64,000 nt of DNA from Bacillota bacterium (GTDB taxonomy: Bacteria; Bacillota; Clostridia; Christensenellales; CAMQZB01), in NCBI GenBank assembly GCA_044426085.1, contig JAWXUU010000011.1, forward strand, positions 3,069-67,068, given 5' to 3'. The notes under the pieces were generated by a model. That model was not told the origin of the DNA, made no database searches, and saw only the letters and a list, made by a program, of their open reading frames with translations. Of the stretch, positions 9,825 through 64,000 are shown piece after piece; position 1 is the first letter of the stretch, and the number at the start of each line of letters is the position of its first letter. A program made the translations under genes and the position numbers.

Positions 9825-9837
9825 CAACAAACTTTAA

Positions 9838-9914: not shown

Positions 9915-9953
9915 ATAACAACTTAATACCGTTTTCCAATGGGTAAAAAGCAT

Positions 9954-10030
9954 GGCCTGGTAGTTCAGATGGTTAGAACGCTAGCCTGTCACGCTAGAGG
10001 TCGAGAGTTCGAGTCTCTTCCAGGTCGCCA
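9954..10030 (+). tRNA. tRNA-Asp (GUC)
   Basis: Acceptor GGCCTGG/CCAGGTC, anticodon loop CTGTCAC, encoded CCA. Confidence 0.9.
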
Positions 10031-10036
10031 TTTTTT

Positions 10037-10112
10037 GCCCCGGTAGCTCAGTCGGTAGAGCAGTAGACTGAAAATCTACGTGTCGGTGGTTCGATTCCGC
10101 CCCGGGGCACCA
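10037..10112 (+). tRNA. tRNA-Phe (GAA)
   Basis: Acceptor GCCCCGG/CCGGGGC, anticodon loop CTGAAAA, encoded CCA. Confidence 0.9.
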
Positions 10113-10153
10113 TTTGGAAAAACAAAACAATGAAAAGGCAATAAGGCAAATAT

Positions 10154-10230
10154 GCTGGTGTAGCTCAACTAGGCAGAGCAACTGACTTGTAATCAGTAGG
10201 TTGCGGGTTCGATTCCCATCACCAGCTCCA
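10154..10230 (+). tRNA. tRNA-Thr (UGU)
   Basis: Acceptor GCTGGTG/CACCAGC, anticodon loop CTTGTAA, encoded CCA. Confidence 0.88.
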
Positions 10231-10270
10231 TTGAAATTTTAGGATTTAGCAATAAATCCTAAAACCATAT

Positions 10271-10360
<90 letters not shown>

Positions 10361-10463
10361 AGCATTAAATCTAACGATTTAGTGCTTTTTTTATGTATTT
10401 TTATCGAAAATCACTGCTTTTTCCTATTAAATAAATAGGATCACGTTTATAACGCTTTTTTTG

Positions 10464-10485
10464 TGGGTAAGTTTTTGGGTAAGTT
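10464..10485. promoter_or_regulatory. Candidate arm-type integrase binding sites (2 x TGGGTAAGTT, 12-bp period)
   Basis: Direct repeats at 10464-10473 and 10476-10485, abutting the int stop. A third copy lies at 23258-23267 near the other end of E1. Confidence 0.5.
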
Positions 10486-48873: not shown

Positions 48874-49004
48874 TTAGATTGTGATCACAAAGTAAGAAAG
48901 TGTAGAAAGAGAATAAATTGTGATCACAATTTGTTGGGGACTATTGGGGGTTGAAGTGCTCAGAAACCGCATTCTATAAGGGATTCCGTGCCACTTTCGA
49001 GTGG

Positions 49005-49060
49005 CTTAGGATCTAGTGTCTACGACATGGGGGTTCAAGTCCCTTTATCCGCACCATTCT
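49005..49060 (+). repeat. attR of E2 (56-bp copy of tRNA-Leu 3' part)
   Basis: Identical to 36196-36251. Followed by its own hairpin terminator AAAGCACCTAGGTA..TACCTAGGTGCTTT. Confidence 0.9.
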
Positions 49061-49226
49061 AAAGCACCTAGGTAATCATACCTAGGTGCTTTTACTTTGC
49101 CCTAAAATACCAAAAGGGACTTGAACACGGAGCGACCCGAACGCAGAGAGGGGGGAAACGTGCGATGAAACGCACGTTTTTAGCGTAGCGGCGTGAAAGT
49201 GGAGTGGCAAAGCCACGCAACGGAGC

Positions 49227-49254
49227 AAGTCCCTTTATCCGCACCATTCTTAAG
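49227..49254 (+). repeat. Third, partial copy of the tRNA-Leu 3' end (att scar)
   Basis: CAAGTCCCTTTATCCGCACCATTCTTAA matches 36225-36252. An inverted fragment AAAGGGACTTG lies at 49111-49121. Followed by hairpin AAGACCCTCT..AGAGGGTCTT + T run. Confidence 0.8.
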
Positions 49255-49329
49255 ACCCTCTAGCCAGAGGGTCTTTTTACTATCCTTTTTTAGGTTGTAG
49301 GCAAATAAATAAAGGAATGGAGGCAGTGA

Positions 49330-49821
49330 ATGAATAGATACTATATAGAAATAGAAGAAGAAAAAATTGATGATATAGAATCGATGTTATTGTGTTTTTC
49401 TGATGGTTATGAATCAATTCGAATTTTTGGTGAAGAAATCATTGATATGAAGCTTGAATTTGAAGAAGAAATGGTTTTTAATAACATTGGATTTAACAGA
49501 GTTTTAAAAGACGGATTTCTAAAAATTAGATTCAGCAAGAGCTTGAACTCAAATAAAAGATGTGCGTGTTTCAATTTCTCAAAAAATGACAAGATAAAGA
49601 AAAAGCAAATCGAAAAAAGATTGTGTGATTTATGCGATATCCAAGCCATAGAAGTCCATAAGAAAAGCAACAATTGTGAAGAAGAATTCGATGTGCCGTG
49701 TAAAATCAAAATCAAGCACGGCAAAATCAAAGCCAAAATTTCTTCAAGCTGCCAAATTGATAAAGATGGTGACTTACTAATCCAAATGGGCGAATCATCA
49801 GGGTTTGTCAAAACAAAATAA
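49330..49821 (+). CDS. Hypothetical protein
   Basis: 163 aa, GGAGG RBS, acidic N-terminus, Lys/Cys-rich C-terminal half. No family recognised. Confidence 0.5.
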   Translation: MNRYYIEIEEEKIDDIESMLLCFSDGYESIRIFGEEIIDMKLEFEEEMVFNNIGFNRVLKDGFLKIRFSKSLNSNKRCACFNFSKNDKIKKKQIEKRLCDLCDIQAIEVHKKSNNCEEEFDVPCKIKIKHGKIKAKISSSCQIDKDGDLLIQMGESSGFVKTK

Positions 49822-49849
49822 AACTAAATAGATTAAAAACAGAAATAAA

Positions 49850-49890
49850 AAATGCACCCAAAGCCGAATAAAGCTTTCGGTGCATTTTTT
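49850..49890 (+). terminator. Rho-independent terminator
   Basis: TGCACCCAAAGC..GCTTTCGGTGCA followed by TTTTTT. Confidence 0.7.
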
Positions 49891-49985
49891 GCAGGTTGAG
49901 AATGGCGTTCCCAACCTATGCCAATGCATAAAAGAGAGCTTTTTTAGGCTCTGTGTCAAATGTTGGGGTGGAAATTGGGGTGGAT

Positions 49986-50132
49986 TTAACCCTTTTTTTG
50001 GGGTTTTACCTTGAGTGCTTCGCTAAGTTCAAATTCAGGTCTAACCTCGGTATATGTGTTCATTGTCATACTAATATTAGTGTGTCCAAGCCATTTTTGC
50101 ACTACCTTTGGTGATATCCCTTTTTCGTGGCA
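49986..50132 (-). pseudogene. Integrase remnant (C-terminal about 48 codons only)
   Basis: Minus-strand translation CHEKGISPKVVQKWLGHTNISMTMNTYTEVRPEFELSEALKVKPQKKG* aligns with the C-termini of both intact integrases. Homology stops abruptly near 50132. Two TTGGGGTGGA repeats (49963-49984, 12-bp period) lie 3' of its stop. Confidence 0.75.
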
Positions 50133-50217
50133 GTTTGGGGTGATAATTTTAATATTTTTTCCTAATCTTTATAGGAAGCAAGAGCTTGATTTTTTAGAGG
50201 TTCACAAAGATTATTTT

Positions 50218-50790
50218 ATGGAATTTTATTGGTCAGAAACGGAGGAAGCAAATAATTATAGGTACATTGTTTATGATAGGTATGTGGAAACAAGTGTAAG
50301 TTCAGCAACAAAAGTGCTAGCATTTGGTGATGATTTGTATCTAACATATGTGGCATATCGTGACGATGGAAAGATAAAATTTTGGAGCGCGCCGAAAGAA
50401 GATAAGATGTATACATATAAAGATATCTCGGAAATTCCAAACGACGAATGGAGAATTTACGAGGTCTATTGTTGGGGCAGTCATTCAACAGAAATAGAGT
50501 TTATTTTGGATAGTGGCGCAAGCGACAAGTTCTATACATACGCAAGCTCATATAACACAGTGATGGAGTCAACACCTGATTATGTTGTGACACATAACTA
50601 TATAATGAACGGTGACTATCAAGGTTATTATATGTGGAAAAACGAGTTTTTCTTTAAAGATGGTCTAGCTGTCAAGCAAGTTGAATATATGGATTTGAAT
50701 AACAATAATAACTGGGATGCAGATGAAATCACAAAGATAAAAATCCAAGATATGTATTGCGAAGTTGACTTAACAAAAGTCGGAATATAA
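50218..50790 (+). CDS. Hypothetical protein
   Basis: The track ORF opens at 50011 but its first 69 codons are antisense to the integrase remnant. ATG 50218 (MEFYWSETEEANNYRY..) is the first plausible start. No clear SD. Confidence 0.4.
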   Translation: MEFYWSETEEANNYRYIVYDRYVETSVSSATKVLAFGDDLYLTYVAYRDDGKIKFWSAPKEDKMYTYKDISEIPNDEWRIYEVYCWGSHSTEIEFILDSGASDKFYTYASSYNTVMESTPDYVVTHNYIMNGDYQGYYMWKNEFFFKDGLAVKQVEYMDLNNNNNWDADEITKIKIQDMYCEVDLTKVGI

Positions 50791-51060
50791 GAAACTTTCC
50801 AAGAAATACCTCAAAAAACAACAAAAGCATAGCAGGTTTCCCTGCACAATGCTCCCACGCAACTGCTGTCACCGTTTTTCCCTTTGTCTATAAGGGGAAA
50901 GTGGCATTTTTAAATGACAAGTGGCAGCAGTTCTTATCCTGCTAAGAGTTAATTTAACTTATTGTAGTAGTAAAAATAATAAAACAGCTTATTAATATCT
51001 CTTTATTTAGCATATAATAATGTAAGGGTATATTTGGCAGAAATCTAATTTATAAAAACC

Positions 51061-51089
51061 TTGACAAGTATTTATGCGTATGGTATACT
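51061..51089 (+). promoter_or_regulatory. Strong consensus promoter of the repeat-RNA/toxin locus
   Basis: TTGACA (51061-51066), 17 nt, TGgTATACT (51084-51089). Confidence 0.65.
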
Positions 51090-51134
51090 CTTAATGTAAG
51101 GTAGCTCACTTGAGTATGCTTGCAAGTGGATTGA

Positions 51135-51230
51135 CACTTAAAACCCAGATATTTGCCGAGAAATCGGAGGTTGATAGGCAACACTAAAACCTAGATTAGC
51201 CCGAAAGGGTAGTTGGTGGGCAACACTAAA
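51135..51230 (+). ncRNA. Tandem 47/42-nt structured repeats (candidate type III antitoxin RNA)
   Basis: CACT(T)AAAACC..hairpin..GGCAA units start at 51135, 51182 and 51224. Internal hairpins covary (CCGA-GAAA-TCGG versus CCC-GAAA-GGG). The repeats lie between the promoter and a terminator, directly upstream of a CDS. Confidence 0.5.
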
Positions 51231-51244
51231 ATCAATCAAAAAGC

Positions 51245-51280
51245 AAAGGTTTGCTTCTGCGGAAGTAAACCTTTTGTTTG
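51245..51280 (+). terminator. Hairpin between repeats and downstream CDS
   Basis: AAAGGTTTGCTTC-TGCG-GAAGTAAACCTTT followed by TGTTTG. Confidence 0.5.
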
Positions 51281-51294
51281 TATTAAGGAGACAA

Positions 51295-51921
51295 ATGATA
51301 AAAGATAAGGATGACGCAAGAAAGGTTATTTTGAATGCATCAAAAAAATATGCGGAGCTTTTAGGGAAAGATTTCTTTGTGATAGCAGAAAGGAGTAATT
51401 CATATAAATGGACGGAAGTAGCTTTTTGTGAAAAGAATTTTTTACATCTTACAGGGGTGAAATTTTTCCAAAAGACACAAGAAGATAATGCATTAACATT
51501 TTTTGATAAAGCATTAAATAACAAACTAGCAAACAGTGATTTTGAAATCGTTAATGACCTTACATATAAGAAATTAAGTGTGCTTGAAAATGCTTGTAAT
51601 TTTACGCAAAGCGGTAAAATGCATGGCAATTTCGATGGGCAAAAGAGATACTTGAAAACAGGGGCTTTGGTTGGCACTGTTTCGTGGTATCTTGGGTTTG
51701 TTTATGATGAAGATGAAAAATCAATGTTGCCAAACACTTTGATGAAAGAAGATATTCGTGATGTCAGCGAACCATTTGGAATTATCATGATGATAGAAAA
51801 AACACGTATGGTAGATTTGAAGTATGAACTAGATAACATTGTTTACATAAATAACAAACGTTTCGATGTTAATAATATAAAGAATTTACCGAAAGAAATA
51901 AAAAACAAGATCGAATTTTAA
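51295..51921 (+). CDS. Hypothetical protein, candidate type III toxin (endoribonuclease)
   Basis: AAGGAG RBS before ATG 51295 (track ORF opens at 51274). 208 aa. No family recognised by eye. The call rests on locus architecture only. Confidence 0.4.
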   Translation: MIKDKDDARKVILNASKKYAELLGKDFFVIAERSNSYKWTEVAFCEKNFLHLTGVKFFQKTQEDNALTFFDKALNNKLANSDFEIVNDLTYKKLSVLENACNFTQSGKMHGNFDGQKRYLKTGALVGTVSWYLGFVYDEDEKSMLPNTLMKEDIRDVSEPFGIIMMIEKTRMVDLKYELDNIVYINNKRFDVNNIKNLPKEIKNKIEF

Positions 51922-51940
51922 TTAATTCTATGCATAAGCA

Positions 51941-51978
51941 AAAATGAGCTACTCGGGATTTCCGAATAGCTCATTTTA
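51941..51978. terminator. Bidirectional terminator
   Basis: AATGAGCTA..TAGCTCATT with inner TCGGGA/TCCGA, between convergent genes. Confidence 0.65.
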
Positions 51979-51993
51979 ATGTTATGGTTTGTC

Positions 51994-52260
51994 TTAAAAA
52001 AGACCGATATCAAGCACTGTTTCGATTATGTTGTGTGTACCATCATCAGCGATACTTATGATGTCAACAAAAATCGTATTTTCGTAATTATCAATCATTA
52101 TATTTTGTTTTTCTCTAGGGATTTTTTTATTGTTTTCAGCTTGTCTTACAAATGCCCAATCCTCAGCTTCATCGTAGTTTTCAAAGTATGCGAATTGCCC
52201 ATCTTCATAGTTTTCAAAAGCCAAATAAATTTCATTTGGTTCTAGGTTGTCTTCTCTCAC
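51994..52260 (-). CDS. Hypothetical acidic protein
   Basis: GTG start with GGAG upstream. 88 aa, strongly acidic (EIYLAFENYEDGQFAYFENYDEAEDW). Confidence 0.5.
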   Translation of the reverse strand: MREDNLEPNEIYLAFENYEDGQFAYFENYDEAEDWAFVRQAENNKKIPREKQNIMIDNYENTIFVDIISIADDGTHNIIETVLDIGLF

Positions 52261-52300
52261 GTGTCACTCCTTTTGTTACTTATGCCATGCATTAGCTATT

Positions 52301-52660
52301 TTATTTATGTGTTTTATATAAGTCATAATTTTTGTCAAGCACAACATATCCAAATTCACGCCTAGGTGTGTTAATGATTTTGTCAATACTGGCTCGTTTT
52401 TCGTTTAGGAGAAAAGCAACACAATCCATAACATCAACAATAGAAACATTCTCCACCTTGAGCCATACATCATAGCTATAAGAATAAAGGTTATTCAAAT
52501 CTTCAAAGTTAATTTTGTCGAAAAGCTCGCCCTCTAGTGTTGCCATATTAACTATATCTTCAAAAACTTTTTTGTGGACATAGCTTTGGCTAAGTGCATG
52601 AACAAATTCTTTGGTGTTCGTTTGTGCTTCTTTAATAATAGTTTCAATATCAAATTTCAT
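52301..52660 (-). CDS. Hypothetical protein
   Basis: 119 aa. GGGGG RBS. Co-oriented with 51994-52260. Confidence 0.5.
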   Translation of the reverse strand: MKFDIETIIKEAQTNTKEFVHALSQSYVHKKVFEDIVNMATLEGELFDKINFEDLNNLYSYSYDVWLKVENVSIVDVMDCVAFLLNEKRASIDKIINTPRREFGYVVLDKNYDLYKTHK

Positions 52661-52896
52661 AATATCACCCCCTTAACCGCTTATTGTGCCAAATAAAATA
52701 TAGCAAGATATTTGCTTTTCAGTAGGGAAGTAATACCTGCATTTTTCTAGTGCCATAATAGCCATTTCTCTAAGTTTATTCTTAACATTTACTCCTTTCT
52801 GCGATTGCAGTGCTTTTTATGTCTTTAACCCTCAAATTGCTTTTTTTGAGAGTTTTTGAAGCCTTTAAATTTAATTATTGAAAAGTTGAAATATTC

Positions 52897-53180
52897 ATTT
52901 TGAGCCTAGCTCTGTGTTTGTTTAATATGAAAGTTTATCGCTTTTTCAGGGACCGTTTCGTCGCCTTATGCCACCAATAGAACTGAATTTGTAAAATTAT
53001 CAAGAAATCGCACAAACGATAATAAAAAAATTTATTGAAGTAAAACGAAAAGAAAATTTTTTATGATTCTTTAGAATTTGAAAAATTATGTTATATTCAG
53101 AGTGGCTTGGGGACGAAATGGCTGAAAAACGATAAACATAAAATAAGCACAGCTCAAATTTAAAATGAAAATGAAAACAC
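52897..53180. repeat. About 285-bp element with about 70-bp imperfect terminal inverted repeats
   Basis: The left arm ..TTTATCGCTTTTTCAGGGACCGTTTCGTCGCC pairs with the right arm GGGGACGAAATGGCTGAAAAACGATAAACATAAAATAAGCACAGC.. A solo copy of the right arm lies at 61553-61632. Confidence 0.6.
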
Positions 53181-53238
53181 TAAATGAATACCAACGTAGT
53201 TGGCTAAAATAAAAAATAGCGATAATAATCGCTATTTT

Positions 53239-53730
53239 TTATTTTAAATATTGTAAGTTATCTTCTTGCATTTGTGTAGTTAAATCTATAAAGGTCTTCT
53301 TCTTTTTGATTGCGTATTCAAATGTATTAAAAGCGCCACCGCCAGTTCGTGTGACGTAGGTTATGACATAATCTGAATTATCAACCATCCATTGGTTGCG
53401 CTTAATTATGGCGAAACGAGGCATAACTTCAGTTTCAAAAGGATAGATTGTGTATGCATTATATTTTTCTAATTGATATTCATAATGATTCAGGTGAGAT
53501 TGTGTAATATAGGGGACGACAACAATATTTTGAATGCTAGAAAATTCTTTTTGCACGTCAAAAACAGCGGAAAGCGCCAATGTATCAAACTCGCCGTATC
53601 CACCAGAATAAAACGTTGTCACGCCAAGGCATGCCAAGTGACGAACTTCGTCCACTAATTTTTTATACAATAATTTATCGTTATAAATATGTTTGTGTCC
53701 GCAAAATGTGCATTTCATATTTGTCTCCAT
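53239..53730 (-). CDS. SLOG-superfamily protein (DUF1273/YpsA-like)
   Basis: CTFCGHKH near the N-terminus, YSGGYGEFDTLA, RNQWMVDNSDYVITYV..GGGAFNTFEYA. This pattern is typical of DUF1273. Confidence 0.6.
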   Translation of the reverse strand: METNMKCTFCGHKHIYNDKLLYKKLVDEVRHLACLGVTTFYSGGYGEFDTLALSAVFDVQKEFSSIQNIVVVPYITQSHLNHYEYQLEKYNAYTIYPFETEVMPRFAIIKRNQWMVDNSDYVITYVTRTGGGAFNTFEYAIKKKKTFIDLTTQMQEDNLQYLK

Positions 53731-53845
53731 GTGCTTTTTTGATTAATTATAAACTAATTTTTATATTTCCGCAACAGCGGAAATATAAATTTGCGTAATT
53801 TCATATAATAAATTTACGCAGCAACGGAAATTTAGGGGGTATAGC

Positions 53846-54085
53846 ATGAAATTAAATGCAGCGATTGCAAAAAGAGTTATAGAATTAAAAGAAGAAAGTG
53901 GATTAAATCTATATGCGTTTGGCAAGCTAGTTGGTGTTGCTAGTTCAACACTAGATGATGTAATAAAATGTAAAAATGATACTGTCAAAATAAGAATCAT
54001 TTTTGAAATTACTCAAGGGTTAAATATATCTTTAAAAGAATTTTTCGATAGACCATACTTCGATAAAGAAAATCTAATAGACTAA
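53846..54085 (+). CDS. XRE-family HTH protein (1 of 3 in tandem)
   Basis: MKLNAAIAKRVIELKEESGLNLYAFGKLVGVASSTLDDVIK.. 79 aa. GGGGG RBS. Confidence 0.7.
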   Translation: MKLNAAIAKRVIELKEESGLNLYAFGKLVGVASSTLDDVIKCKNDTVKIRIIFEITQGLNISLKEFFDRPYFDKENLID

Positions 54086-54108
54086 TGCCTATATAAGAGG
54101 TGGATATT

Positions 54109-54315
54109 ATGAAATTTAGTGAAAGATTGAAAGAATTGCGACAAGAACGAAATTTAACAACAACATCGCTAGGAAAAGAAATTGGTGTAAGCAATTCAAC
54201 TATATCAAGATGGGAAAACGAAGAAATTGTGCCAACCATTATTTATTTGTATAAACTAGCTGTATTTTTGAAGTTAGTGCAGATTTTTTTGATTGGCTTA
54301 AGTGATGAAATTTGA
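54109..54315 (+). CDS. XRE-family HTH protein (2 of 3)
   Basis: MKFSERLKELRQERNLTTTSLGKEIGVSNSTISRWENEE.. GAGG before ATG 54109. Confidence 0.7.
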   Translation: MKFSERLKELRQERNLTTTSLGKEIGVSNSTISRWENEEIVPTIIYLYKLAVFLKLVQIFLIGLSDEI

Positions 54316-54332
54316 TTTTTTAGAGGAATAAT

Positions 54333-54575
54333 ATGAAACTTACAACAGCTGTCAGCAAGCGAATAAGAGAACTTTTGAATGAAAGAGGCATGACTCAATA
54401 TCAGCTTTATAAAAAATCAGGCGTGCCACAATCTACAATAAGCACAATATTATCAGAAAAAGACAAAACATCAAAATTGTTGACAATAGCGCAAATTGCA
54501 CAAGGCTTTGATATGGGGCTGGAAGAATTCTTTGCAAGTGCAAATTTCTCTTTTACGGAGTTAGATGTTGAATAG
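54333..54575 (+). CDS. XRE-family HTH protein (3 of 3)
   Basis: MKLTTAVSKRIRELLNERGMTQYQLYKKSGVPQSTISTILSEKD.. 80 aa. Confidence 0.7.
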   Translation: MKLTTAVSKRIRELLNERGMTQYQLYKKSGVPQSTISTILSEKDKTSKLLTIAQIAQGFDMGLEEFFASANFSFTELDVE

Positions 54576-54667
54576 ATTGATGAAAACTTTTCATTGACTA
54601 TTGTGGTGTGTTAGAATGAAATAAATAAAAATGCAATTCTTGTATTGCATTATACAGGGGAAATTTA

Positions 54668-55456
54668 ATGGAACGCATAAATTACGCTATTGATAATATA
54701 TTGGAACATGTTCACGAATCTAGCGGGATAGATAATACTAAATCATTAGGGTTAAAATTTGAATGGTTAAATACAAGAGAGAATAACTATAGATTTGAGG
54801 ATGTAGATAATTTAATATTATATTATTATGATTCAATTATAGTCAAAACATTGTTTTTAACCAGCGGCTTTAATGAGGGTATATTTTTATGTAAAGCTAA
54901 CGACAAAAAAGAAATTTGTCTAAAAAAAGAAATTTGTCTAAAAAAATGGATTTGTCTAAAAAAAAGGATTTTTCTAAAAAACGAAATTGATCTAAAAAAG
55001 GGGATTTGCCTAGAGAAGAGATTCATTATAAAAACGACAAGAGCGTTAAGGAAAATGTATTTACTATTGCAGTATGCAGAGGCATCAATCAAGGAGTTGA
55101 TAGATAGCAATAGCAAACAATGTACGGTAGGTGATTTCTTTAAGAGATATGATTTAACTGAGGATATACTTGATAGTAAGACTAATCTGAGTAATGAATA
55201 TTTATTTTCTAAGTCCTCACGGAGCACAGATAAAGATAAGTATAATTATTATTTATCCAATGTTTATAAAACAGTAATTTTTTTAGAGAATTTTTATTTA
55301 GAAGTAGGTGAGGGTAAAAAGAAATCTTTCAGTGAGTTTTTATGTTATGACTTATCTGAGCTAGATAAAATAATCGAAGAGGGCATAGAGTTATTTATCA
55401 AGTTAAATGAAAATTTCACTAATTATTTATTGGAGCAAGAATTATATGAGTTGTAA
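54668..55456 (+). CDS. Hypothetical protein with internal hexapeptide tandem repeat
   Basis: 262 aa. KKEICL KKEICL KKWICL KKRIFL KNEIDL KKGICL. Its stop overlaps the start of the next gene. Confidence 0.55.
   Translation: MERINYAIDNILEHVHESSGIDNTKSLGLKFEWLNTRENNYRFEDVDNLILYYYDSIIVKTLFLTSGFNEGIFLCKANDKKEICLKKEICLKKWICLKKRIFLKNEIDLKKGICLEKRFIIKTTRALRKMYLLLQYAEASIKELIDSNSKQCTVGDFFKRYDLTEDILDSKTNLSNEYLFSKSSRSTDKDKYNYYLSNVYKTVIFLENFYLEVGEGKKKSFSEFLCYDLSELDKIIEEGIELFIKLNENFTNYLLEQELYEL
54905..55030 (+). repeat. 18-bp tandem repeat (6-7 copies) inside the CDS
   Basis: AAAAAAGAAATTTGTCTA x2, followed by progressively diverged copies, in frame. Confidence 0.85.
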
Positions 55457-55958
55457 GAAGGAATTGAATGGATTAATTAAGGCATTTGAAAAAAGTAAAA
55501 TCAAGGTAAATTCCAAAGCAAATAAATGTGTGGGTTTCGGAATAAATACTGGAGGCAGGTATTTCCTTTCATTAAGTGGAGTAAAAGGAGATTATATTGG
55601 GAATACATTTCCTGCATGGAAATATAATCATTCTTCAAATTTTGCACTAGTTCAAAAGGAGCTTGTTTCATTTTTTAATAAAGCTGGAAGAAGAAGGGTT
55701 GTCGTAGCGCATTTAACAGACAAGTGTGAAACGGACTACAGCGCGTGGAGATCAAATTGTAAAATAATAAGATGTGATATGGTTGATTTTAATTATCAAT
55801 ATCCAAACAGTGCGGAAATTTCAAGATTATTTTCTTGTGTTGAACGCAAAATATTATCGGGAAGTACACCTTGTCGAATACGTAAAATTTATGTTAGTAA
55901 AGAACCATGTATGTTGTGTAAAGGTTTTTTGAAAAAGGTAGATATCATTAATAAATAA
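55446..55958 (+). CDS. Deaminase-fold protein (CxE ... PCxxC zinc motif)
   Basis: 170 aa from ATG 55446 (track ORF opens at 55407). FSCVERKIL...SKEPCMLCKGFL matches the [HC]xE / PCxxC signature of the cytidine/nucleic-acid deaminase superfamily. The gene is translationally coupled to the upstream gene. Confidence 0.55.
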   Translation: MSCKKELNGLIKAFEKSKIKVNSKANKCVGFGINTGGRYFLSLSGVKGDYIGNTFPAWKYNHSSNFALVQKELVSFFNKAGRRRVVVAHLTDKCETDYSAWRSNCKIIRCDMVDFNYQYPNSAEISRLFSCVERKILSGSTPCRIRKIYVSKEPCMLCKGFLKKVDIINK

Positions 55959-57014
55959 GTAACAAATAGTTAGGGATAAAAAAATATCGTGAAAGGTGAC
56001 ACTTGTGTTTTTCGGTGATTACGATGTGAGTGGCGTTATCTAATATTGATTGGATAAAGGATTTAAATAAAGACTTTTAAGCATCAAAAGACACCTTGCG
56101 TCGTCACTTTTCGTGGTTATAATGACTTTATAAAACAAAGGTGGATAATTTATGGCATATTCAAGGTGTCAAGGGCTTTCTTCTATGGTGTTTGACAAAA
56201 TCATTGGTGATACGATTGATGCGGTGAAAGTGCAAAGTGATTCTTTAATCAACCTATTGAATTTTTCAGCAAGCAGGATTTAAACACAACGATAAGAGTG
56301 AGGTAAGCGAGCCTATTTATAGCAACCATCCAGCACAGTTCGATGACACGTAGCTTAAGGTTGCAGCTCTCATAATGTATCCAATTTAATTCATCTGAAA
56401 TGCGACAATAGGTATCAAGCATAATAGAAAGCATTTCGAAGTTTGTTCCTATAATTATATTTATTTAAAACTTATTTTTTTGCGGGTCATGTAAATGATA
56501 GTGTATATTTCCATTGTTGTTGATATACTGGAATGTCATAAACGGTCTTGCACGGAGGAGCGGACTATCTGCTTCGCTAGAAAGGAGATTAGTGGCAAAT
56601 GTGTAGCAATGATTTAGTTTTTATACCAGCAAGTTTAAGGTTGTTTTGGAAGATGTTCTCTATGATGTAAATAGAATGGGGATCACATAAAAACCTCCAC
56701 GTTTTTTGTTAGGTTTTTTTCTCAATATGCTCAAAAATACTTATAACAAATTAATTCTGTCTAGTAAAAGAACTTTAATATGTTATATTTTTAGACTTAA
56801 GATTAAATTTTATAAGAATATTTAGCTGCAATTCGTAAATATTTGTAATATTAAATTATGGATGAAAATTTTAAAATAAATATTTTTTATAAATAAAAAG
56901 CCAAAAATAAATATTGATTTTTATATTGTTGTATGTTATGCTTGTGTTATATAATTTTATTAATATAGTAGAAAATAATACTTAATAAAAATTATAAAAG
57001 AGAGGAAGTCATGT

Positions 57015-57296
57015 ATGTTAAATGGGTTTAAGACTGGTTTGGTAATATTTATTTCAATAATTTTAGCAATAGTATGTGAGGTAGTTTCAAAATCGTATGC
57101 GTTTTTATACTTTGAACAATCGCATTATAATAATATTATGATTGCATTGTTCTCTGGTTTAATAGTGCTAGGATTGTTTGGTGGAACTGTTATTCAGATT
57201 GCATCTAATGGAACGTTAAATATGTTTGGATATAAAAGTAATTTTATTGTATATGATATACCTATGGCACTCAAATTTTTTAGTTTAAGTCATTAA
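57015..57296 (+). CDS. Small multi-pass membrane protein
   Basis: 93 aa, three hydrophobic helices. GAGG RBS. First gene of a five-gene operon. Confidence 0.55.
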   Translation: MLNGFKTGLVIFISIILAIVCEVVSKSYAFLYFEQSHYNNIMIALFSGLIVLGLFGGTVIQIASNGTLNMFGYKSNFIVYDIPMALKFFSLSH

Positions 57297-57316
57297 TAAG
57301 TTCACAAGCTATATTT

Positions 57317-57532
57317 ATGTTATTAGGTTTTGTATTTTTGCTTTTGCAGTGGTTTAATGCTATTGCAATGATTTTCTTTATATCAATAACGACTACCTTA
57401 TGTATCATAGGAACGTCAATCAAAATTTTGAAATGCAATGGTTTTGTAATTAACAGAAGTGCAGATTATTTTGATAAAAAAATTGATAAATTGTTAAAAA
57501 AATGTAAGAATAAGCAAGATGGTGAACAATGA
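57317..57532 (+). CDS. Small membrane protein
   Basis: 71 aa, two helices. Its stop overlaps the next start (ATGA). Confidence 0.5.
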   Translation: MLLGFVFLLLQWFNAIAMIFFISITTTLCIIGTSIKILKCNGFVINRSADYFDKKIDKLLKKCKNKQDGEQ

Positions 57533-58572
57533 AAAATTTAGATAGAAATAAAAAAGGAATTAAAAAGTATAAAGCACAAGTTTCAGTTATGATCGAGAAT
57601 TTTTTGGTAGACTGTATTGGATATATGCATGGTAGAAATGAGTATAAATATGATTATTTATATGAAAAATATTTCGAACAATATAAGTTATTGCATAATA
57701 AACAAATTGAAATGTTTATGTATTTTGTAGATAAAGTTCTTTGTAAAAAAATTGAATCTAGTGAGGATGAAGAAGCTAATATAGAATTATTTAAACAATT
57801 ATTTTTAAATGATGAAATTGTAAAGACTAGTAACGTATATGTTCAAAACAACAACTGTCATTCATTGCAAGTGTTAATTAGAAAAACCAAAAAATGTACA
57901 TCCGAGTTATATTACTTAATACTAGATTATGTTAAAGTATACGAACTAGAAAGAAAAAGCGGTATGACATTAAATGAAAATTTGTATATTCAATCGTATA
58001 AGAACAATAATTTAAAATTTATCGAAAACGAATTTATAAAGTCAATTGATAGTCAAGAAGGACTTGAATTATTCAAATTCATGATTAAAGTTTTGTGTGA
58101 GAATGCCGATAATAGATTAGCTTCCGTTTTGAGAAAAATGAGATGGGAATCTTCTATAAGAAACTCTGGAGACTTACATGTAGAATTGCTAATTTATTTT
58201 AATTACTTTTGTAATAATATTATAGTACCAGAATCAATAAAAGATGAAGTTAGGAATATCTTAAATTTTAACGCATATGGGGAAAACTCCTTTTTAGAAT
58301 ATATGAAAAGTTATCCATCATCTAGTTTAAAAATAGGAGCTAATTTAGAAGATATGGAGAATACGCAATATAGATTAGATGGACTTGCGTATAGAATTGT
58401 ATTGACACATGAATACGTTTCAAAATATAAGGTTTATTTTGCGATTATTAATAATATATCTAATTTGGATTTTCATAGTGTTAAACGTAATGCATTGTCG
58501 AGTCTTGTGCAGATGTTTAATGATGAACAGCTTGATGTAGCTCATATGGAAGAATGTAAAAAATTTGCTTAA
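57529..58572 (+). CDS. Hypothetical helical protein
   Basis: 347 aa. No recognisable motif. Translationally coupled to the upstream gene. Confidence 0.55.
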   Translation: MKNLDRNKKGIKKYKAQVSVMIENFLVDCIGYMHGRNEYKYDYLYEKYFEQYKLLHNKQIEMFMYFVDKVLCKKIESSEDEEANIELFKQLFLNDEIVKTSNVYVQNNNCHSLQVLIRKTKKCTSELYYLILDYVKVYELERKSGMTLNENLYIQSYKNNNLKFIENEFIKSIDSQEGLELFKFMIKVLCENADNRLASVLRKMRWESSIRNSGDLHVELLIYFNYFCNNIIVPESIKDEVRNILNFNAYGENSFLEYMKSYPSSSLKIGANLEDMENTQYRLDGLAYRIVLTHEYVSKYKVYFAIINNISNLDFHSVKRNALSSLVQMFNDEQLDVAHMEECKKFA

Positions 58573-58599
58573 TTTTATCATGGAACATGTATTGATTCA

Positions 58600-59022
58600 A
58601 TGGAAATAAATGTTAGCTTTCTGGGAGGTCTTAAAAATGTATATTGGAAAGAAGAGAAAAAAGCAATAAATACATTTGCTGAACCTTTTTTTGAGAATAT
58701 TTATGGAAACTTACAAAATATGTTTGACTCAAAATCAGAATGCGAAATCTATGAAAAATCTGTTTGTTTACCAAACAATAAAAATGCTGATATGGCTTTT
58801 AAAATGCTCACGGAACAATTTAGCAACGTGAATGTGGTGGGAATTAGAAAACTAGAAGATTCAGATTGTAGTCAAAAGTATGTCAAACTAGAACAGGATA
58901 AAGTATTGTTACCTACTGTAAATGGCATAAAAGTCGAAGTTTCTGAAAAAGAAGCCATTGAGTATCTAAAAAATAAATATATCATTGTGGTGTTGGCAGA
59001 AAGAGCAAGTAAACAAGACTAA
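58600..59022 (+). CDS. Hypothetical protein
   Basis: 140 aa. No recognisable motif. Confidence 0.5.
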   Translation: MEINVSFLGGLKNVYWKEEKKAINTFAEPFFENIYGNLQNMFDSKSECEIYEKSVCLPNNKNADMAFKMLTEQFSNVNVVGIRKLEDSDCSQKYVKLEQDKVLLPTVNGIKVEVSEKEAIEYLKNKYIIVVLAERASKQD

Positions 59023-59086
59023 TATATATGGATAAGAAAATTATTAAATGATAAAATGAAAATATAATTAATTAAGAAGGCGAAAA

Positions 59087-60838
59087 ATGAAGAAAAATGA
59101 TTCAATACAAACGGAAAAATTTGTATACAAATTAATTAAACAAATAGGAGAAGGTGGGAATAGTTATGTTTGGAAAGCTAAAATAGTAAATAAAAATAAA
59201 GATGTAGAAGACAATAGAATAGTAGCTATTAAATGTCTAAAGTATAAGGAAAATAAATCTACAAAGATTAGCAGATTTAAACAAGAAATTAAATTTTGCA
59301 TAAAAAACAATCACGATAATATTATTTCAATAATAGATCAGGGTGAGGTTGAGGATGTGTTTTTTTATGTTATGCCTATATATGAAACAACATTAAGAAC
59401 TATAGTGAATAATAGGCAAGCTTATTTGTTAAAACAAAAATTTGATTATATTATTAAAATTTGCGAAGGAATAAAATTTATTCATGATAAAAACATAATT
59501 CATAGAGATTTAAAACCAGAAAATATTTTAATTAATCAAGAATCAATAGTGCTATGTGATTTTGGGATTGCGCATTTTGAAGATTCAATTTTGACTGTTG
59601 AAGAAGATTTGTTGGCTAATAGAGCGTATGCTTCTCCTGAACAAAAAGGAGTAGGAAAAGCGAAAGAAATTACTTCAGCGACAGATATCTTTTCTTTAGC
59701 TTGCATCATCAATGAGTTGGTTACAGGTTGTAATCCTGCAGGTAAAAACTTCGTTAAAATAGGTGATGTGGTGCCTTTTCTTTATCCTTTAGACGATTTG
59801 ATTGGACAGTGCTTGGACTACAATCCAAATAAAAGGCCATCTATAGATATTCTTTTATTGAAGATAAAATTGTTTTTAGGGAAAATAAATAGCGACATGC
59901 AAGAAATTGTATCACTTAATACAATTGGTAAAACAACACTAAGTGAAAAAGAAAAAGATATTATAAATCAGTCTGGCGAGGATATTTTGACAGCGAAGCA
60001 ATTTTTTGAAAACAAGAGTAATGAATTTCTTGAAAAATTGAATTTTAATTATCATTGTAATATTCATTATCAAATAGATGAATATTTAAAGAAAATTTAT
60101 TTTCAGAAGACATTATTAGATATTTGCATAAAAAAATTCGAATACGAAAGCCATGTGTATACTGATGGTAAACCTTATATATCGTTAGATTTAAATAAAG
60201 AAGAAGATTTGGAACGATATAATAGATTGAAGCAAGTTTTATCTAGATATAAGTTAAAGAATTTGGCATGGAAAGGAATAGAAGGAAGTATAAACAAGCA
60301 CTTTTTGTCATGTTGTGACTATCACTGTGATGAAATTTTGGATAAAATTAAGACAATAGAAAATGAAATTTCTGAATTAGAGGATGCTCCAATTTTGTAT
60401 ATTGTTATGAAATTTAGAGATAATGCGATTTCTAATTTATTTGAAGCGAAAGAGGCACAGTTAGATCATCATGTATTCGTTAATTGGGACAAAACATTAA
60501 ATGGATTTAGTTATCCGCAAGAGAATATGTATTATAAAGAACCAATGGAGAAATTACTTGCAATTTTGGAAGAGTTTAAGTTGAAATGGGGCATTATATT
60601 CCAGCAGGTTGGAATAAATGAATTTACTATAATGTTTCAAGCAAAAAGTAGCTATGATGATTTTGTAAAATTCTCGATAGATACTGCAAAAGGATATTAT
60701 ATTTTTGAAGGAGATGTTTTGGATATCTTAAGAGTTGAAAATGAGTATGATGGAATTGTTCAAGTAAAAAATTTTAATACATTTGATATAACAAACACGT
60801 TAGCAAAAATTTTAAAAATTAGAAAGATTAATGAGTGA
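59087..60838 (+). CDS. Hanks-type Ser/Thr protein kinase with about 300-aa unknown C-terminal domain
   Basis: GEGGNSYVWKA (G-loop), VAIK, HRDLKPENIL, DFGIA, ASPEQ. No TM or PASTA. The C-terminal half is unassigned. Confidence 0.8.
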   Translation: MKKNDSIQTEKFVYKLIKQIGEGGNSYVWKAKIVNKNKDVEDNRIVAIKCLKYKENKSTKISRFKQEIKFCIKNNHDNIISIIDQGEVEDVFFYVMPIYETTLRTIVNNRQAYLLKQKFDYIIKICEGIKFIHDKNIIHRDLKPENILINQESIVLCDFGIAHFEDSILTVEEDLLANRAYASPEQKGVGKAKEITSATDIFSLACIINELVTGCNPAGKNFVKIGDVVPFLYPLDDLIGQCLDYNPNKRPSIDILLLKIKLFLGKINSDMQEIVSLNTIGKTTLSEKEKDIINQSGEDILTAKQFFENKSNEFLEKLNFNYHCNIHYQIDEYLKKIYFQKTLLDICIKKFEYESHVYTDGKPYISLDLNKEEDLERYNRLKQVLSRYKLKNLAWKGIEGSINKHFLSCCDYHCDEILDKIKTIENEISELEDAPILYIVMKFRDNAISNLFEAKEAQLDHHVFVNWDKTLNGFSYPQENMYYKEPMEKLLAILEEFKLKWGIIFQQVGINEFTIMFQAKSSYDDFVKFSIDTAKGYYIFEGDVLDILRVENEYDGIVQVKNFNTFDITNTLAKILKIRKINE

Positions 60839-60954
60839 AAGTTGTAAGTATGATTAATCTTGTGATTTTGAAATACAAATTAACTGCTAAGGAAAAATAG
60901 GAATGTGTAATATATACTTCTCATGTTTGTTATTTTTTTATGCAACGAGTACTC

Positions 60955-60989
60955 AAAAGGCATAGGTACCCAGTACCTGTGCCTTTTTT
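60955..60989 (+). terminator. Rho-independent terminator
   Basis: AGGCATAGGTAC-CCA-GTACCTGTGCCT followed by TTTTTT. Confidence 0.7.
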
Positions 60990-61220
60990 ATATCCATAAT
61001 CACAAGAAACGGAAATTTGGATTCCATATTAGCACCGTTATAAACAATGTATTTGTTTTAAGTGTATCTGGTAAATATTGCGGTGGTGTTACGTGCTAGC
61101 TTGCTGCGGAGTTTATTCGTAGTTTCTGTTTAAAATCCTATGTTGGCACAAAACAAAATACTTATTTACAAAGTTAATGTAAAATGGTATAATGATAATA
61201 TCAATATAAACTGAGGTGTA

Positions 61221-61552
61221 ATGTCAAAATAGCGATTGTTGATGACAAAAATTATATATAGATAAGATTTGGTCAGAACTTGAAATAATCTTTAGCGATG
61301 AATCTAAACACATGCATATTGACACTTAGAGCAATGGTCATGATATACTCTTGGAAGATAAGTTTAAAGAATACAGTATAATTTTACTTGACATTGATAT
61401 GCCAAGTATTGATGGCTTTGCAGTGGCTAATGAAATAAGAACTAGAAATAAAGATATCATCTTTTATCACAAACAGAGATGATAAAGTTTGTGCTTCTTT
61501 CAAGTTTAAGCTATTCAGATTCATTTGTAAATTACATCTTAAAAATGAGTTA
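61221..61552 (+). pseudogene. Decayed response-regulator receiver domain
   Basis: GAGGTG RBS, MSKIAIVDDKNYI* followed by out-of-frame pieces ..IILLDIDMPSIDGFAVANEIRTRNKDII.. and ..FITNRDDKVCASFKFKLFRFICK.. There are several stops and frameshifts. No output domain is present. It ends at a repeat copy. Confidence 0.7.
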
Positions 61553-61632
61553 GGCGAAATGGATCAAAAAACGATAAACATAAAATAAGCACAGCGCAGT
61601 TCGAAAAGAAAATGAAAACGCCATATGAATCG
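61553..61632. repeat. Solo copy of the right arm of the 52897-53180 element
   Basis: GGCGAAATGGATCAAAAAACGATAAACATAAAATAAGCACAGCGCAG..GAAAATGAAAAC aligns with 53110-53185. Confidence 0.65.
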
Positions 61633-61802
61633 TTGAGTATCTGATTGTGGTCACGCAGTTTATGTGTGAGTGTGGTATTTTAACGTTGTGCATTTCTACA
61701 ATGGTACCTATTTAATATATAATTTTTACAAAAATTTTCATAATGTATTGCCTTTTTTTGCAATTACATGTTAAACTTTTTATCAAAATAGGAGAATAAA
61801 AA

Positions 61803-62660
61803 ATGAACACAAATATTGATAATAGAAGAAAAAAATTAATTAATAGTTCGCATGGTGATGGAGAATGGTGGAAAATGGTTTATCGAGGATATGAATTTAT
61901 AGAACACGAATGCGAAAAGAATGAGGATTTATGTTCTTCTTTGAAGGTTAACTCAATCAAATTTAGCAGATATATATATCAAGATGTCAGAAATGGAGAA
62001 GTAGATCATGCGCATCGTCATATAGCTAATAATGTTGTTAATGAATTGAAAGAGTGCGGATATATAAAATTTCTTAAGAAAAATGATGTATGGATGTTAA
62101 AAATTGCTGATAAATTAGATATCTTTGATGATTCCATTATAAAATCAAAATTTAAACATGTCAAAATGGAAGAGAAGGCAATTTTAACAAGTAAAGAGAA
62201 AGCACGGAAAGTACATCAGCATCTTTTGAAAAATGGCATAAACATTTATGAATGGGAAAGAAAGTGTTTTAAATGTGGTAAAAAAACGAAAGTTAAAACG
62301 TATTTGCTAGCTAATCAAATATTGAATGAACTAGGTGAAGAGTTTGTTCCGTGTGCTAAGGAATATAGGGATTTTAATTTGTTTGAAACATTAGGTTTGG
62401 GATATTTTGATAGTTTAGATAATTACCTTATGGAATTGTATCCTACAATAAAGAAAAAATATTCAAAAGAAATGGGGAAAGAATATGTAATGAATACCTG
62501 CAATATATGTGGAATGCACTTTGGAATAAACTACACTGTGTATCAACCAAAGGAAATTTTAAATATGCCTAAAAAAGATTTGGAAAATCTGATTGTAGAT
62601 AGAGTCGATATAAAAGATTTAATCAGTGAATTTGACATATTGATATACATGAAAGATTAG
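61803..62660 (+). CDS. Hypothetical protein with two zinc-ribbon-like CxxC pairs
   Basis: 285 aa. GGAG RBS. CFKCGKKTK ... CNICGMHFG. No family recognised. Confidence 0.55.
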   Translation: MNTNIDNRRKKLINSSHGDGEWWKMVYRGYEFIEHECEKNEDLCSSLKVNSIKFSRYIYQDVRNGEVDHAHRHIANNVVNELKECGYIKFLKKNDVWMLKIADKLDIFDDSIIKSKFKHVKMEEKAILTSKEKARKVHQHLLKNGINIYEWERKCFKCGKKTKVKTYLLANQILNELGEEFVPCAKEYRDFNLFETLGLGYFDSLDNYLMELYPTIKKKYSKEMGKEYVMNTCNICGMHFGINYTVYQPKEILNMPKKDLENLIVDRVDIKDLISEFDILIYMKD

Positions 62661-62773
62661 AGAAGATGAGTTTTGTTTTTCGTCCATTGTATAGCTTTAT
62701 ATAAATAGCATTTGGCGTTGACGCCATATGTATAAAATGATATAATCTATTTATCAATATCATGGAGGTGTTT

Positions 62774-63277
62774 ATGTTACAACTGATATTAAGCTCATCG
62801 CTTGCCGAAATGGATAAGGATATACTTGTAGAAATCTATGAAAAATACAGTGGTGTTATTCGTAAAACAGCTATGGGAATTGTGAAAAACGCTAGCGACA
62901 TGGAAGATGTTGAACACGATGTTATATTGAAGCTCATAAAAAATATAGAAACATTGAAACAGCTAGAGGAAAAATCCATTGCGGGTTATATAATAACGAC
63001 TGCAAAGTTCACGAGTTTTGATTTGCTCCGAAAAAGGAATCGCAGAAAGGAAACTTTGCTTGAAGATGTCTTTTCTTCGGTAGATGAAAGAGAAATTGAA
63101 GATAAAAAAGAGATTGCAGGTTTTTCAAGTTTAGCGCAAAAAGAGCAGTTGCTTATGAATTTAAAATATGTTGAAGAAATGTCGTCAAAGGAGATTGCAA
63201 AGCAATTTAATACGACAGAAAACGCAATAAATTTAATTTTGTTTAAGGCGAAAGAAAAAATTAGAAAAAATTTATAA
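62774..63277 (+). CDS. ECF-type sigma-70 family sigma factor
   Basis: GGAGG 5 nt before ATG 62774 (track ORF opens at 62762). Region 2 (EDVEHDVILKLIKN, AGYIITTAKFTSFDLLRKR) and region 4 HTH (MSSKEIAKQFNTTENAINLILFKAKEKIRK). Confidence 0.75.
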   Translation: MLQLILSSSLAEMDKDILVEIYEKYSGVIRKTAMGIVKNASDMEDVEHDVILKLIKNIETLKQLEEKSIAGYIITTAKFTSFDLLRKRNRRKETLLEDVFSSVDEREIEDKKEIAGFSSLAQKEQLLMNLKYVEEMSSKEIAKQFNTTENAINLILFKAKEKIRKNL

Positions 63278-63340
63278 AAAGCAGAAAGATTTTATATTTT
63301 TAGAACGTCTTATAAGTGAAAGATAAAATCGGAGGATAAA

Positions 63341-64000
63341 ATGAAATCGCTCAAACAAATACAAAATGAAATTGAAGACTTGCGTATCATGGAAAACGTG
63401 ATGATATCCATGCAAGATGAAGGTGAAAAGGTCATTGAAAATATCGGTGACTACGATAAGTATAAATCAGCTTCAAACAAAAAAATAAACAAACTCAAAA
63501 GTCGTGCGAAACTAAAAGAAATATGCTTGCATGCATTTAAATTCAGCAAAAAAGCAGTTGCGTGTTTTGGAGTATTGGTGATTTTTGCCACAGCTATGAT
63601 AGTTCCAAACCAAACAGTCATGGCACAAATAGCAGAATATCTAGCAACGAGATACGAAACGCATTTTGAAATCCAAACGGGAACAAATGGCGAGGATATA
63701 AATTTTATGCACAATGCTGAGAACTGTTTTGGGTATTTGCCAGAAGGGTATGAAATTTCAGAAATAGATTTGACAAAAAGTTCTATTCAAGCCACCTCAG
63801 TCAAATTAGTAAACGATGAGATTTCTATGCTAGAAATTAATATTACAAACGATTTAAATTTCTATGTTGATGCGGAAAACGGAACAGTGATTGAAGAAGG
63901 CTATTTTGAAGGCAGCCCATATACCTATATGCTCAATGAAGAAAACAATAGTCAAATATATATTATAAAAACAGATGATACAATTATCTATTGTAAACAC
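63341..64000 (+). CDS. Putative anti-sigma factor / DUF4367-like membrane protein (3' end outside window)
   Basis: GGAGG RBS before ATG 63341. I read 220 codons to the window edge with no stop. One TM helix (AVACFGVLVIFATAMIV). It directly follows the sigma gene. It is absent from the ORF track because it is open-ended. Confidence 0.6.
   Translation, partial: MKSLKQIQNEIEDLRIMENVMISMQDEGEKVIENIGDYDKYKSASNKKINKLKSRAKLKEICLHAFKFSKKAVACFGVLVIFATAMIVPNQTVMAQIAEYLATRYETHFEIQTGTNGEDINFMHNAENCFGYLPEGYEISEIDLTKSSIQATSVKLVNDEISMLEINITNDLNFYVDAENGTVIEEGYFEGSPYTYMLNEENNSQIYIIKTDDTIIYCKH

Follow-up and report, generated by a model that had tools for sequence, protein, structure and literature searches.

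A rare stand-alone deaminase-fold protein with an overlapping acidic partner gene in uncultured Clostridia: a candidate toxin and inhibitor pair

The subject of this work is a pair of overlapping genes within a stretch of 64,000 nucleotides (nt; hereafter the window) from a Bacillota bacterium of the class Clostridia (Christensenellales, CAMQZB01; GenBank assembly GCA_044426085.1, contig JAWXUU010000011.1, positions 3,069 to 67,068 of the forward strand). The downstream gene encodes a protein of 170 amino acids (aa), here called P0001. The best explanation of its invariant residues, profile matches and modelled structure is a catalytically competent deaminase of the cytidine-deaminase fold, which would depend on zinc. 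The upstream gene encodes the acidic, repeat-bearing protein P0002, for which we propose a role as inhibitor (antitoxin) or as sensor of the deaminase. On balance, we lean towards a pair of the toxin-antitoxin (TA) or abortive-infection kind, in which a deaminase of nucleic acids acts as toxin in the cytoplasm and its inhibitor is translated together with it. The arrangement, a stand-alone deaminase with an upstream overlapping protein partner, is new. The following features of the pair are referred to below:

54588-54617, plus strand: promoter-like site, TTTTCA, 18 nt spacer, TG-TAGAAT (extended -10) (consensus scan)
54656-54661, plus strand: ribosome-binding site (RBS) AGGGGA, 6 nt before the ATG of P0002 (sequence)
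54668-55456, plus strand: partner P0002, repeat-bearing open reading frame (ORF) of 262 aa (ORF and translation)
54905-55012, plus strand: in-frame 18-nt tandem repeat in P0002, 5-6 copies, (KKEICL)n (Tandem Repeats Finder, repeat families)
55446-55958, plus strand: deaminase-fold protein P0001, 170 aa (ORF, family alignment, structure model)
55528-55530, plus strand: codon of P0001 Cys28 (family alignment)
55836-55919, plus strand: predicted catalytic core, Cys131-x-Glu133-Arg-Lys, strand 3 and Pro154-Cys155-x-x-Cys158 (invariant columns, profile matches)

Deaminase motifs, predicted fold and a very rare family

P0001 contains the motifs C131-V-E133 and P154-C155-M-L-C158, and the pattern [CH]xE-x15-35-PCxxC occurs only once when all six frames of the window are searched for ORFs of 60 aa or more (37,887 residues). 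An earlier note, made from the sequence letters, had recognized both motifs, which are indeed present, but its gap of 22 aa was wrong: 15 residues lie between the two quoted strings, and 22 applies from Cys131 to Pro154. P0001 is a basic protein (isoelectric point, pI, 9.7; net charge approximately +17).

Relatives of P0001 proved to be very rare. A word-indexed homology search with P0001 alone returned P0001 as the sole match, while HMMER, run exhaustively on 1.84 billion representatives, detected six genuine relatives (165-184 aa, E 1e-6 to 1e-21); a profile search added four more and a genome locus another one. Two further candidates, P0008 and P0010 (591 aa and 1253 aa), were discarded as repeat-driven false positives, in which many short stretches were aligned. 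Thus, the family comprises approximately 12 sequence clusters among billions of proteins, all of them stand-alone (165-234 aa) and derived from metagenome assemblies and a few NCBI metagenome-assembled genomes (MAGs) of uncultured Clostridia. No long fused form appeared in the HMMER search of the full library. Furthermore, 400 other genomes of the order, among them the one other genome of the genus, yielded no family member, nor did a scan of viral contigs, and tblastn with P0001 gave no match among 50,697 phage and 72,556 plasmid records. Three canonical deaminase genes (PF00383) lie on other contigs of the host genome; hence, P0001 is an accessory enzyme, and the view of the earlier note that it is no housekeeping deaminase holds.

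The relatives are only 26-39% identical to P0001. Nevertheless, twelve residues are invariant in the 12-sequence alignment, namely M1, C28, S44, G45, S130, C131, E133, R134, K135, P154, C155 and C158, and position 27 is K or R in all 12. The family deaminases are without exception basic (pI 8.7-9.8).

Searches with sequences and profiles suggest a placement of P0001 at the superfamily level only. Its best Pfam match is OTT_1508_deam (PF14441) with 18.6 bits, below the gathering cut-off of 27 (E 0.0019, P0001 residues 124-164). The same model was the best match in three of the seven core members scanned, none of them above the cut-off; in other family members, isolated weak matches to dCMP_cyt_deam_1 and MafB19-deam appeared. 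No match to a Pfam dCMP_cyt_deam model was above threshold. The PHROG dCMP-deaminase family matches P0001 at E 0.011, and the PHROGs gave nothing else meaningful. No match to P0001 was found in NCBIfam, nor in PADLOC at E values up to 10. The family profile searched against the PDB retrieved CDADC1 (E 9e-5), Tad2 and TadA, in each case on the segment of strand 3 and PCxxC, and hhalign against a TadA alignment gave 84% probability (E 8e-6) for 20 columns over strand 3 and helix 3.

The AlphaFold2 model calculated from the single sequence was unusable, with a predicted local distance difference test (pLDDT) of 38, while the 12-sequence alignment raised it to pLDDT 81.4 and a predicted template modelling score of 0.81. 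The model starts with a helix (2-18) and two strands (29-34, 39-43), followed by an insert of approximately 85 residues with one helix, three short strands and two short helices. After the insert come helix 132-139, strand 145-150, helix 156-161 and strand 166-169. The invariant C131-V-E133 opens helix 132-139, and C155/C158 open helix 156-161; P154-C155-x-x-C158 thus follows strand 145-150 and is aligned to the same element in CDADC1, Tad2 and TadA. Overall, the order helix 1, strand 1, strand 2, helix 2, strand 3, helix 3, strand 4 (strand 5) corresponds to the three-layer alpha/beta/alpha fold of the deaminases.

With this model, Foldseek gave no significant match, either to PDB structures or to viral models. 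The structure search VIA-align, which is independent of Foldseek and covered 48,161 chains, placed deaminase-fold proteins in approximately 26 of its best 28 rows, among them the following (VIA-align score):

SsdA-type cytidine deaminase toxin of type VI secretion systems (T6SS; 9c63_A): 6.2 (root mean square deviation, rmsd, 4.6 A, 118 aligned)
E. coli CDA and blasticidin-S deaminase: 5.7 (rmsd 2.8 A, 88 aligned)
dCMP/dCTP deaminases: 5.3-5.4
ADAT2/3: 5.2
DddB: 5.0
TadA: 4.5-4.8
DddA: 4.5-4.7
MafB2-CT: 4.5

In the ESM-Atlas, the feature neighbours include MsddA-like, Toxin-deaminase, OTT_1508, SCP1.201, YwqJ and MafB19 clusters, and both RHS C-terminal toxins and cytidine deaminases occur among the structure neighbours, with scores at the level of leads in both cases. 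Hence, the deaminase fold claimed in the earlier note is borne out by the model and its structural matches.

The best structural match, at 11% identity, is EspK's C-terminal domain, from the ESX-1 system of M. tuberculosis (PDB 8ako_B). Its authors describe a mycobacteria-specific fold with a chaperone-like role and do not mention deaminase motifs (PMC9811218); judged from the model, the resemblance may reflect only the common three-layer sandwich. This match prompted us to consider whether P0001 could be a catalytically dead protein that uses the deaminase fold as a binding or scaffold module. We regard this as very improbable, because the full catalytic set (Cys, Glu and Pro-Cys-x-x-Cys) is invariant in 12 divergent sequences, as the earlier note had demanded of homologues, and such conservation is not expected of a non-catalytic scaffold.

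For the placement within the superfamily, we set the family against the table of clade signatures given by Iyer et al. 2011 (PMC3239186). Several features are common to the family and to certain clades. Truncation after helix 3 or strand 4 occurs in toxin deaminase clades (PMC3239186), including truncation after strand 4 in the YwqJ-like deaminases, and the insert of approximately 85 residues and the loss of strand 5 are toxin-clade features as well (PMC3239186). SCP1.201 and BURPS668_1122 carry a Lys two residues past the catalytic Glu, as the family does. The DYW-like group, to which SsdA belongs, has one basic residue before strand 1 and another directly after the Glu, again as in the family, and a subset of XOO_2897 combines a Cys just before strand 1 with an insert that follows strand 2 and precedes helix 2, both of which the family has (Cys28 and the insert).

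However, each of these clades also differs from the family. A conserved Glu in the insert from strand 3 to helix 3 and the presence of helix 4 characterize the XOO_2897 clade, whereas the family has neither a conserved Glu before P154 nor helix 4, and no Pfam match to this clade. The Gx[CH]xE motif of the YwqJ-like deaminases (PF14431) contrasts with F or Y two residues before C131 in all members, and their conserved His in the insert has no counterpart among the invariant residues of the family insert; a Pfam match was again missing. OTT_1508 (PF14441) possesses a GxxK, while none is conserved before P154 in the 12-sequence alignment. Moreover, its extended loop from strand 4 to helix 4, with a conserved polar residue and axxP (PMC3239186), is absent from the family. 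Helix 4 and its loop are absent because the short members end 8-12 residues after CxxC. Regarding SCP1.201 (with DddA and BaDTF1), none of the seven core members matched the Pfam SCP1201-like model at E values up to 1. The first ligand in SCP1.201 and BURPS668_1122 is His or Asp, whereas P0001 has Cys, and P0001 is not fused to PAAR, RHS or LXG modules. Likewise, HxE is described for the SsdA/DYW clade, while P0001 has Cys as first ligand and ends after strand 4.

Generally, no Pfam clade model reaches its own threshold with the family, and by the Pfam scores and the published descriptions (PMC3239186) the signatures of the named clades either do not fit or do not decide on membership. We therefore file the family as an unassigned, very rare clade that is closest in character to the toxin deaminases, in agreement with the earlier note, which had left the family unassigned: no Pfam, NCBIfam or PADLOC model claims P0001. 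The three longer members appear to continue past strand 4 as an immediate hairpin strand, which would point to the C-terminal hairpin division. Cys28, just before strand 1 and outside the canonical zinc motifs, is invariant in 12 of 12 sequences; it could be a fourth metal ligand, form a second site with the insert or be a pocket residue. If this placement is true, a new clade would be added to the nucleic-acid deaminase superfamily, of unusually small size (165-170 aa) and with a lost strand 5, an 85-residue insert and an extra invariant Cys.

An acidic partner upstream of the deaminase at three loci

Both ORFs and the repeat in the upstream one had been described in the earlier note and were found again. 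The ATG of P0001 sits inside ...TATGAGTTGTAA of the P0002 end, which gives the genes an overlap of 11 nt; GGAG stands 10 nt before this ATG. An alternative in-frame ATG at 55407 (183 aa) finds no support in the homologues, which all start at the position that gives 170 aa. P0002 is credible as an ORF, since the chance of 262 codons without a stop at 29% GC is approximately 2e-10 (computed from base composition), its RBS is good and the 18-nt repeat, with identical units 1 and 2, is in frame. The promoter-like site lies approximately 50 nt upstream of P0002, but sites of this type are no more numerous here than expected from shuffling, which makes it weak evidence.

The genomic context could be read at three loci, namely the window, a 118-kb contig of a Clostridia MAG (L002) and another Clostridia MAG (L003/L004). 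In L002, an upstream ORF of 121 aa overlaps the deaminase start by 8 nt (ATGAATAA). In L003/L004, the overlap of an upstream 200-aa ORF with the deaminase depends on the start codon assumed: it amounts to 41 nt with the first ATG of the deaminase and to 8 nt (ATGAATGA) with a later in-frame one. The positions are:

L002, 5625-5990: partner, ORF of 121 aa
L003, 1996-2598: partner, ORF of 200 aa
Window, 55169-55357 (P0002 residues 167-230): region of weak partner similarity (BLASTP, MAFFT)

Hence, the two-gene module proposed in the earlier note recurs, with an unrelated acidic ORF overlapping the deaminase start in two further loci, while no gene downstream of the deaminase is conserved among the three. 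The partners have pI values of 5.7 (the mildly acidic P0002), 4.8 and 5.0. In BLASTP, both foreign partners hit the same region of P0002 at E 0.025 and 0.084, and nothing was found between the other two; the MAFFT alignment contains only one short common patch, [NK]F[FYL]L[EH]. We do not claim homology of the partners, because the E values are only 0.025-0.08 and the shared patch is short. The weak similarity with this patch may have arisen by chance or be left over from a common ancestor.

The domain and homology searches returned little for P0002: no Pfam or PADLOC domain, no detectable homologue, no known immunity family (Imm1-4, SUKH) in the Pfam scan, no meaningful match in NCBIfam and, among the PHROGs, only weak matches to families of unknown function at residues 186-250, none of them meaningful. 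The word-indexed homology search with P0002 returned no sequence, P0002 included, and the exact P0002 sequence is missing from a collection of 15 billion proteins in which P0001 occurs on 9 contigs. This gap may reflect a copy number of (KKEICL)n that differs between samples, or a gene that is often left uncalled. A role of the 18-nt repeat as RNA antitoxin of a type III system was also considered and dropped, because no Rfam family was detected within 49000-64000 of the window and the repeat lies in frame within an ORF that is long and has a good RBS.

At all three loci the layout is that of type II TA systems, with small genes, the putative antitoxin first and overlapping frames. This pattern, in which a basic enzyme follows an overlapping, acidic partner that diverges fast, is that of a toxin and its protein inhibitor. 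In the mechanism that we favour, P0001 would deaminate a base, probably cytosine, in a polynucleotide (single-stranded DNA or RNA) rather than in a free nucleoside; a polynucleotide substrate is suggested because of the high positive charge and the invariant Arg-Lys beside the catalytic Glu. P0001 would be synthesized in the cytoplasm jointly with P0002, and this acidic, fast-evolving protein would bind P0001 and keep it inactive, similar to a type II-like antitoxin. If the partner were lost or titrated, as might happen once a phage stops the expression of host genes, P0001 would be freed, damage nucleic acids and stop growth, as abortive infection or as addiction to the island.

A precedent for a deaminase toxin in TA-based phage defence exists with AvcID (PMC10511110). 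In this system (DcdV/DifV), an island-borne, deaminase-fold toxin is silenced by an antitoxin encoded upstream and is freed by phage-induced shut-off (PMC10511110), and by analogy this scheme serves as a working model for P0001/P0002; it is the closest working analogue. However, the AvcID antitoxin is a small RNA, whereas P0002 is a protein-coding ORF, and AvcD combines an N-terminal P-loop kinase-like domain with a dCMP-deaminase-type domain that acts on free nucleotides (PMC10511110), while P0001 has only 170 aa, no P-loop domain and no PADLOC match. In the literature searched, AvcID is the sole deaminase-based TA defence system; it has an RNA antitoxin and a free-nucleotide substrate. If our reading is true, the pair would represent a cytoplasmic deaminase toxin module with a protein antitoxin.

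Several observations weigh against this interpretation. Only three loci could be compared, and the features that suggest the same function for their partners are only position, overlap and charge. Neither P0001 nor P0002 has a PADLOC model. Scans with the domain libraries detected in P0002 no helix-turn-helix (HTH), ribbon-helix-helix or AbrB domain and no known antitoxin domain. Finally, Cys28 could mean a different metal site or a regulation.

It is also conceivable that the enzyme acts on small molecules, i.e. that a deaminase on a mobile island serves the salvage or detoxification of nucleosides or of nucleoside antibiotics of the blasticidin-S type, next to an upstream ORF that is unrelated or a chaperone. 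The fit of the model with E. coli CDA and blasticidin-S deaminase is in the list above. We consider this improbable, because the net charge of approximately +17 and the invariant Arg-Lys fit a polynucleotide better (PMC3239186), the 85-residue insert and the loss of strand 5 belong to toxin clades (PMC3239186), an acidic overlapping partner occurs at all three loci and no dCMP_cyt_deam match exceeds its threshold.

The closest structural analogues of the modelled P0001 appear to be the interbacterial toxins SsdA and DddA. SsdA (BaDTF2, a DYW-like cytosine deaminase toxin for single-stranded DNA from Pseudomonas syringae, PDB 9c63) is the C-terminal tip of a T6SS toxin with a downstream immunity gene (10.1101/2024.09.08.611884; PMC7901873), whereas P0001 is stand-alone and putatively cytoplasmic, has its partner upstream and shows no match to SsdA at the sequence level. 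Such neighbours, i.e. C-terminal toxin domains of RHS, T6SS and type VII secretion system proteins, would be expected if the pair were an orphan cassette of a secreted polymorphic toxin, a deaminase tip with its immunity gene that recombines into a delivery gene, and stand-alone toxin cassettes without trafficking modules have been described (Iyer et al. 2011, PMC3239186). However, no family member (all 165-234 aa) is fused to a trafficking domain, and the gene that would confer immunity precedes the toxin and overlaps its start, while the usual place of immunity genes is downstream. Moreover, searches of the host genome (94.6% complete) for LXG, WXG100 and RHS repeats were negative, and among the neighbours there is neither a secretion or trafficking gene nor a full-length toxin gene, which makes a secreted polymorphic toxin unlikely, in our estimate even a little more so than the action on small molecules. 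Hence, from the alternatives of the earlier note, which had proposed a toxin/immunity or defence module, the intracellular TA or defence form is favoured, while the secreted polymorphic-toxin form is disfavoured.

Small bacterial toxin deaminases such as DddA, SsdA and BaDTF3 have repeatedly been turned into base-editing tools, and a compact enzyme with a natural inhibitor would therefore be of practical interest. The ecological weight of the family is probably small, given its great rarity and its restriction, as far as known, to uncultured Clostridia.

A defence-type kinase and the surrounding island

A Ser/Thr protein kinase is encoded near the pair in two of the three loci:

Window, 59087-60838, plus strand: Hanks-type Ser/Thr kinase, 583 aa (Pfam Pkinase; PADLOC mad6/PD-T4-6)
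L003 233-1951, identical to L004 3211-4929: kinase, 572 aa, directly upstream of partner and deaminase

The kinase of the window is the last gene of its own five-gene operon, 3.1 kb downstream of the pair, and matches the PADLOC models mad6 and PD-T4-6 over the catalytic domain with E values from 1e-50 (mad6) to 1e-45; Pfam assigns no domain to its C-terminal 300 residues. In L003/L004, the kinase, a 44-nt gap, the 200-aa partner and the deaminase follow each other in one apparent operon. The L003 and window kinases are 31% identical over 458 aa, well past the catalytic domain, and their C-terminal parts alone align at E 1e-5. A profile built from these two detected kinases in 190 of the 400 other genomes of the order (best score 119 bits), and none of the matches listed extends past the catalytic domain (ends at position 307 of 612 or earlier); hence, the subtype appears to be rare in the order. 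The C-terminal domain used alone as query gave 0 of 400 genomes, but this background is invalid since the same query misses the known L003 kinase. Thus, a rare kinase subtype with a shared C-terminal domain adjoins the deaminase family in two unrelated Clostridia genomes.

This neighbourhood leads to a further explanation, a kinase-based defence, in which a kinase like PD-T4-6 or mad6 senses the infection and controls partner and deaminase effector, for example via phosphorylation of the acidic partner or of the enzyme, such that kinase, partner and deaminase would form the functional unit. The recurrence in two of three loci, directly upstream in L003/L004, the rarity of the subtype in the order and the match to the defence kinases mad6 and PD-T4-6 speak for it. 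On the other side, it concerns two loci only, the window kinase belongs to its own operon behind a gap of approximately 1 kb free of ORFs, and the L002 genome has the pair and HipBA, but no such kinase was found there with this query. Furthermore, PD-T4-6-type kinases are reported to act as single-gene systems, and unrelated systems are commonly co-located in defence islands. The PD-T4-6 and mad6 models cover the kinase only, and the described systems as listed by PADLOC 2.0 include no deaminase. We regard this explanation as unlikely, although less so than the other alternatives to a toxin with its inhibitor, and do not rate it higher because only three loci are available. Somewhat more doubtful still is its more specific form, a three-component anti-phage system in which the kinase, with a novel C-terminal sensor domain, controls the deaminase through the acidic hypervariable partner. 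If true, such a system would couple the phosphorylation of proteins with the editing of bases in nucleic acids of the phage or the host, and the enzyme would represent a new minimal deaminase clade with an unusual additional conserved Cys and a substrate specificity of its own. The recurring rare defence-type kinase nearby offers a testable hypothesis on kinase-controlled effectors.

The pair is located on an AT-rich, mobile island of this gut-type Clostridia genome; the GC content falls to 27-31% from approximately 50 kb to the window end, compared to 38-40% in the core, and the island also holds a PBECR4 nuclease and a YpsA/SLOG protein. The ORF-poor segment 55959-57014, approximately 1 kb after P0001, separates the pair from the kinase operon; its ORFs do not exceed 61 aa, Rfam gave no match to it and no terminator there is convincing. 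Directly upstream of the pair lies the following group, which is not conserved in L002 or L003/L004 and whose products are possible regulators of the pair:

53846-54575, plus strand: three tandem small XRE-type HTH genes (ORFs; Pfam HTH_3 for two of three)

In L002, the pair is followed at 6758-10900 by HipB/HipA and a superfamily 1 helicase of 908 aa (AAA_30/UvrD_C), and HipBA with the helicase represents a further cluster of conflict genes at the edge of housekeeping genes. Downstream of the deaminase in L004 (6318-8191), three genes encode proteins of 113 aa (with an N-terminal hydrophobic segment), 229 aa and 206 aa (membrane-anchored), the first two without a Pfam match; these genes lie between the deaminase module and MarR/thioredoxin genes.

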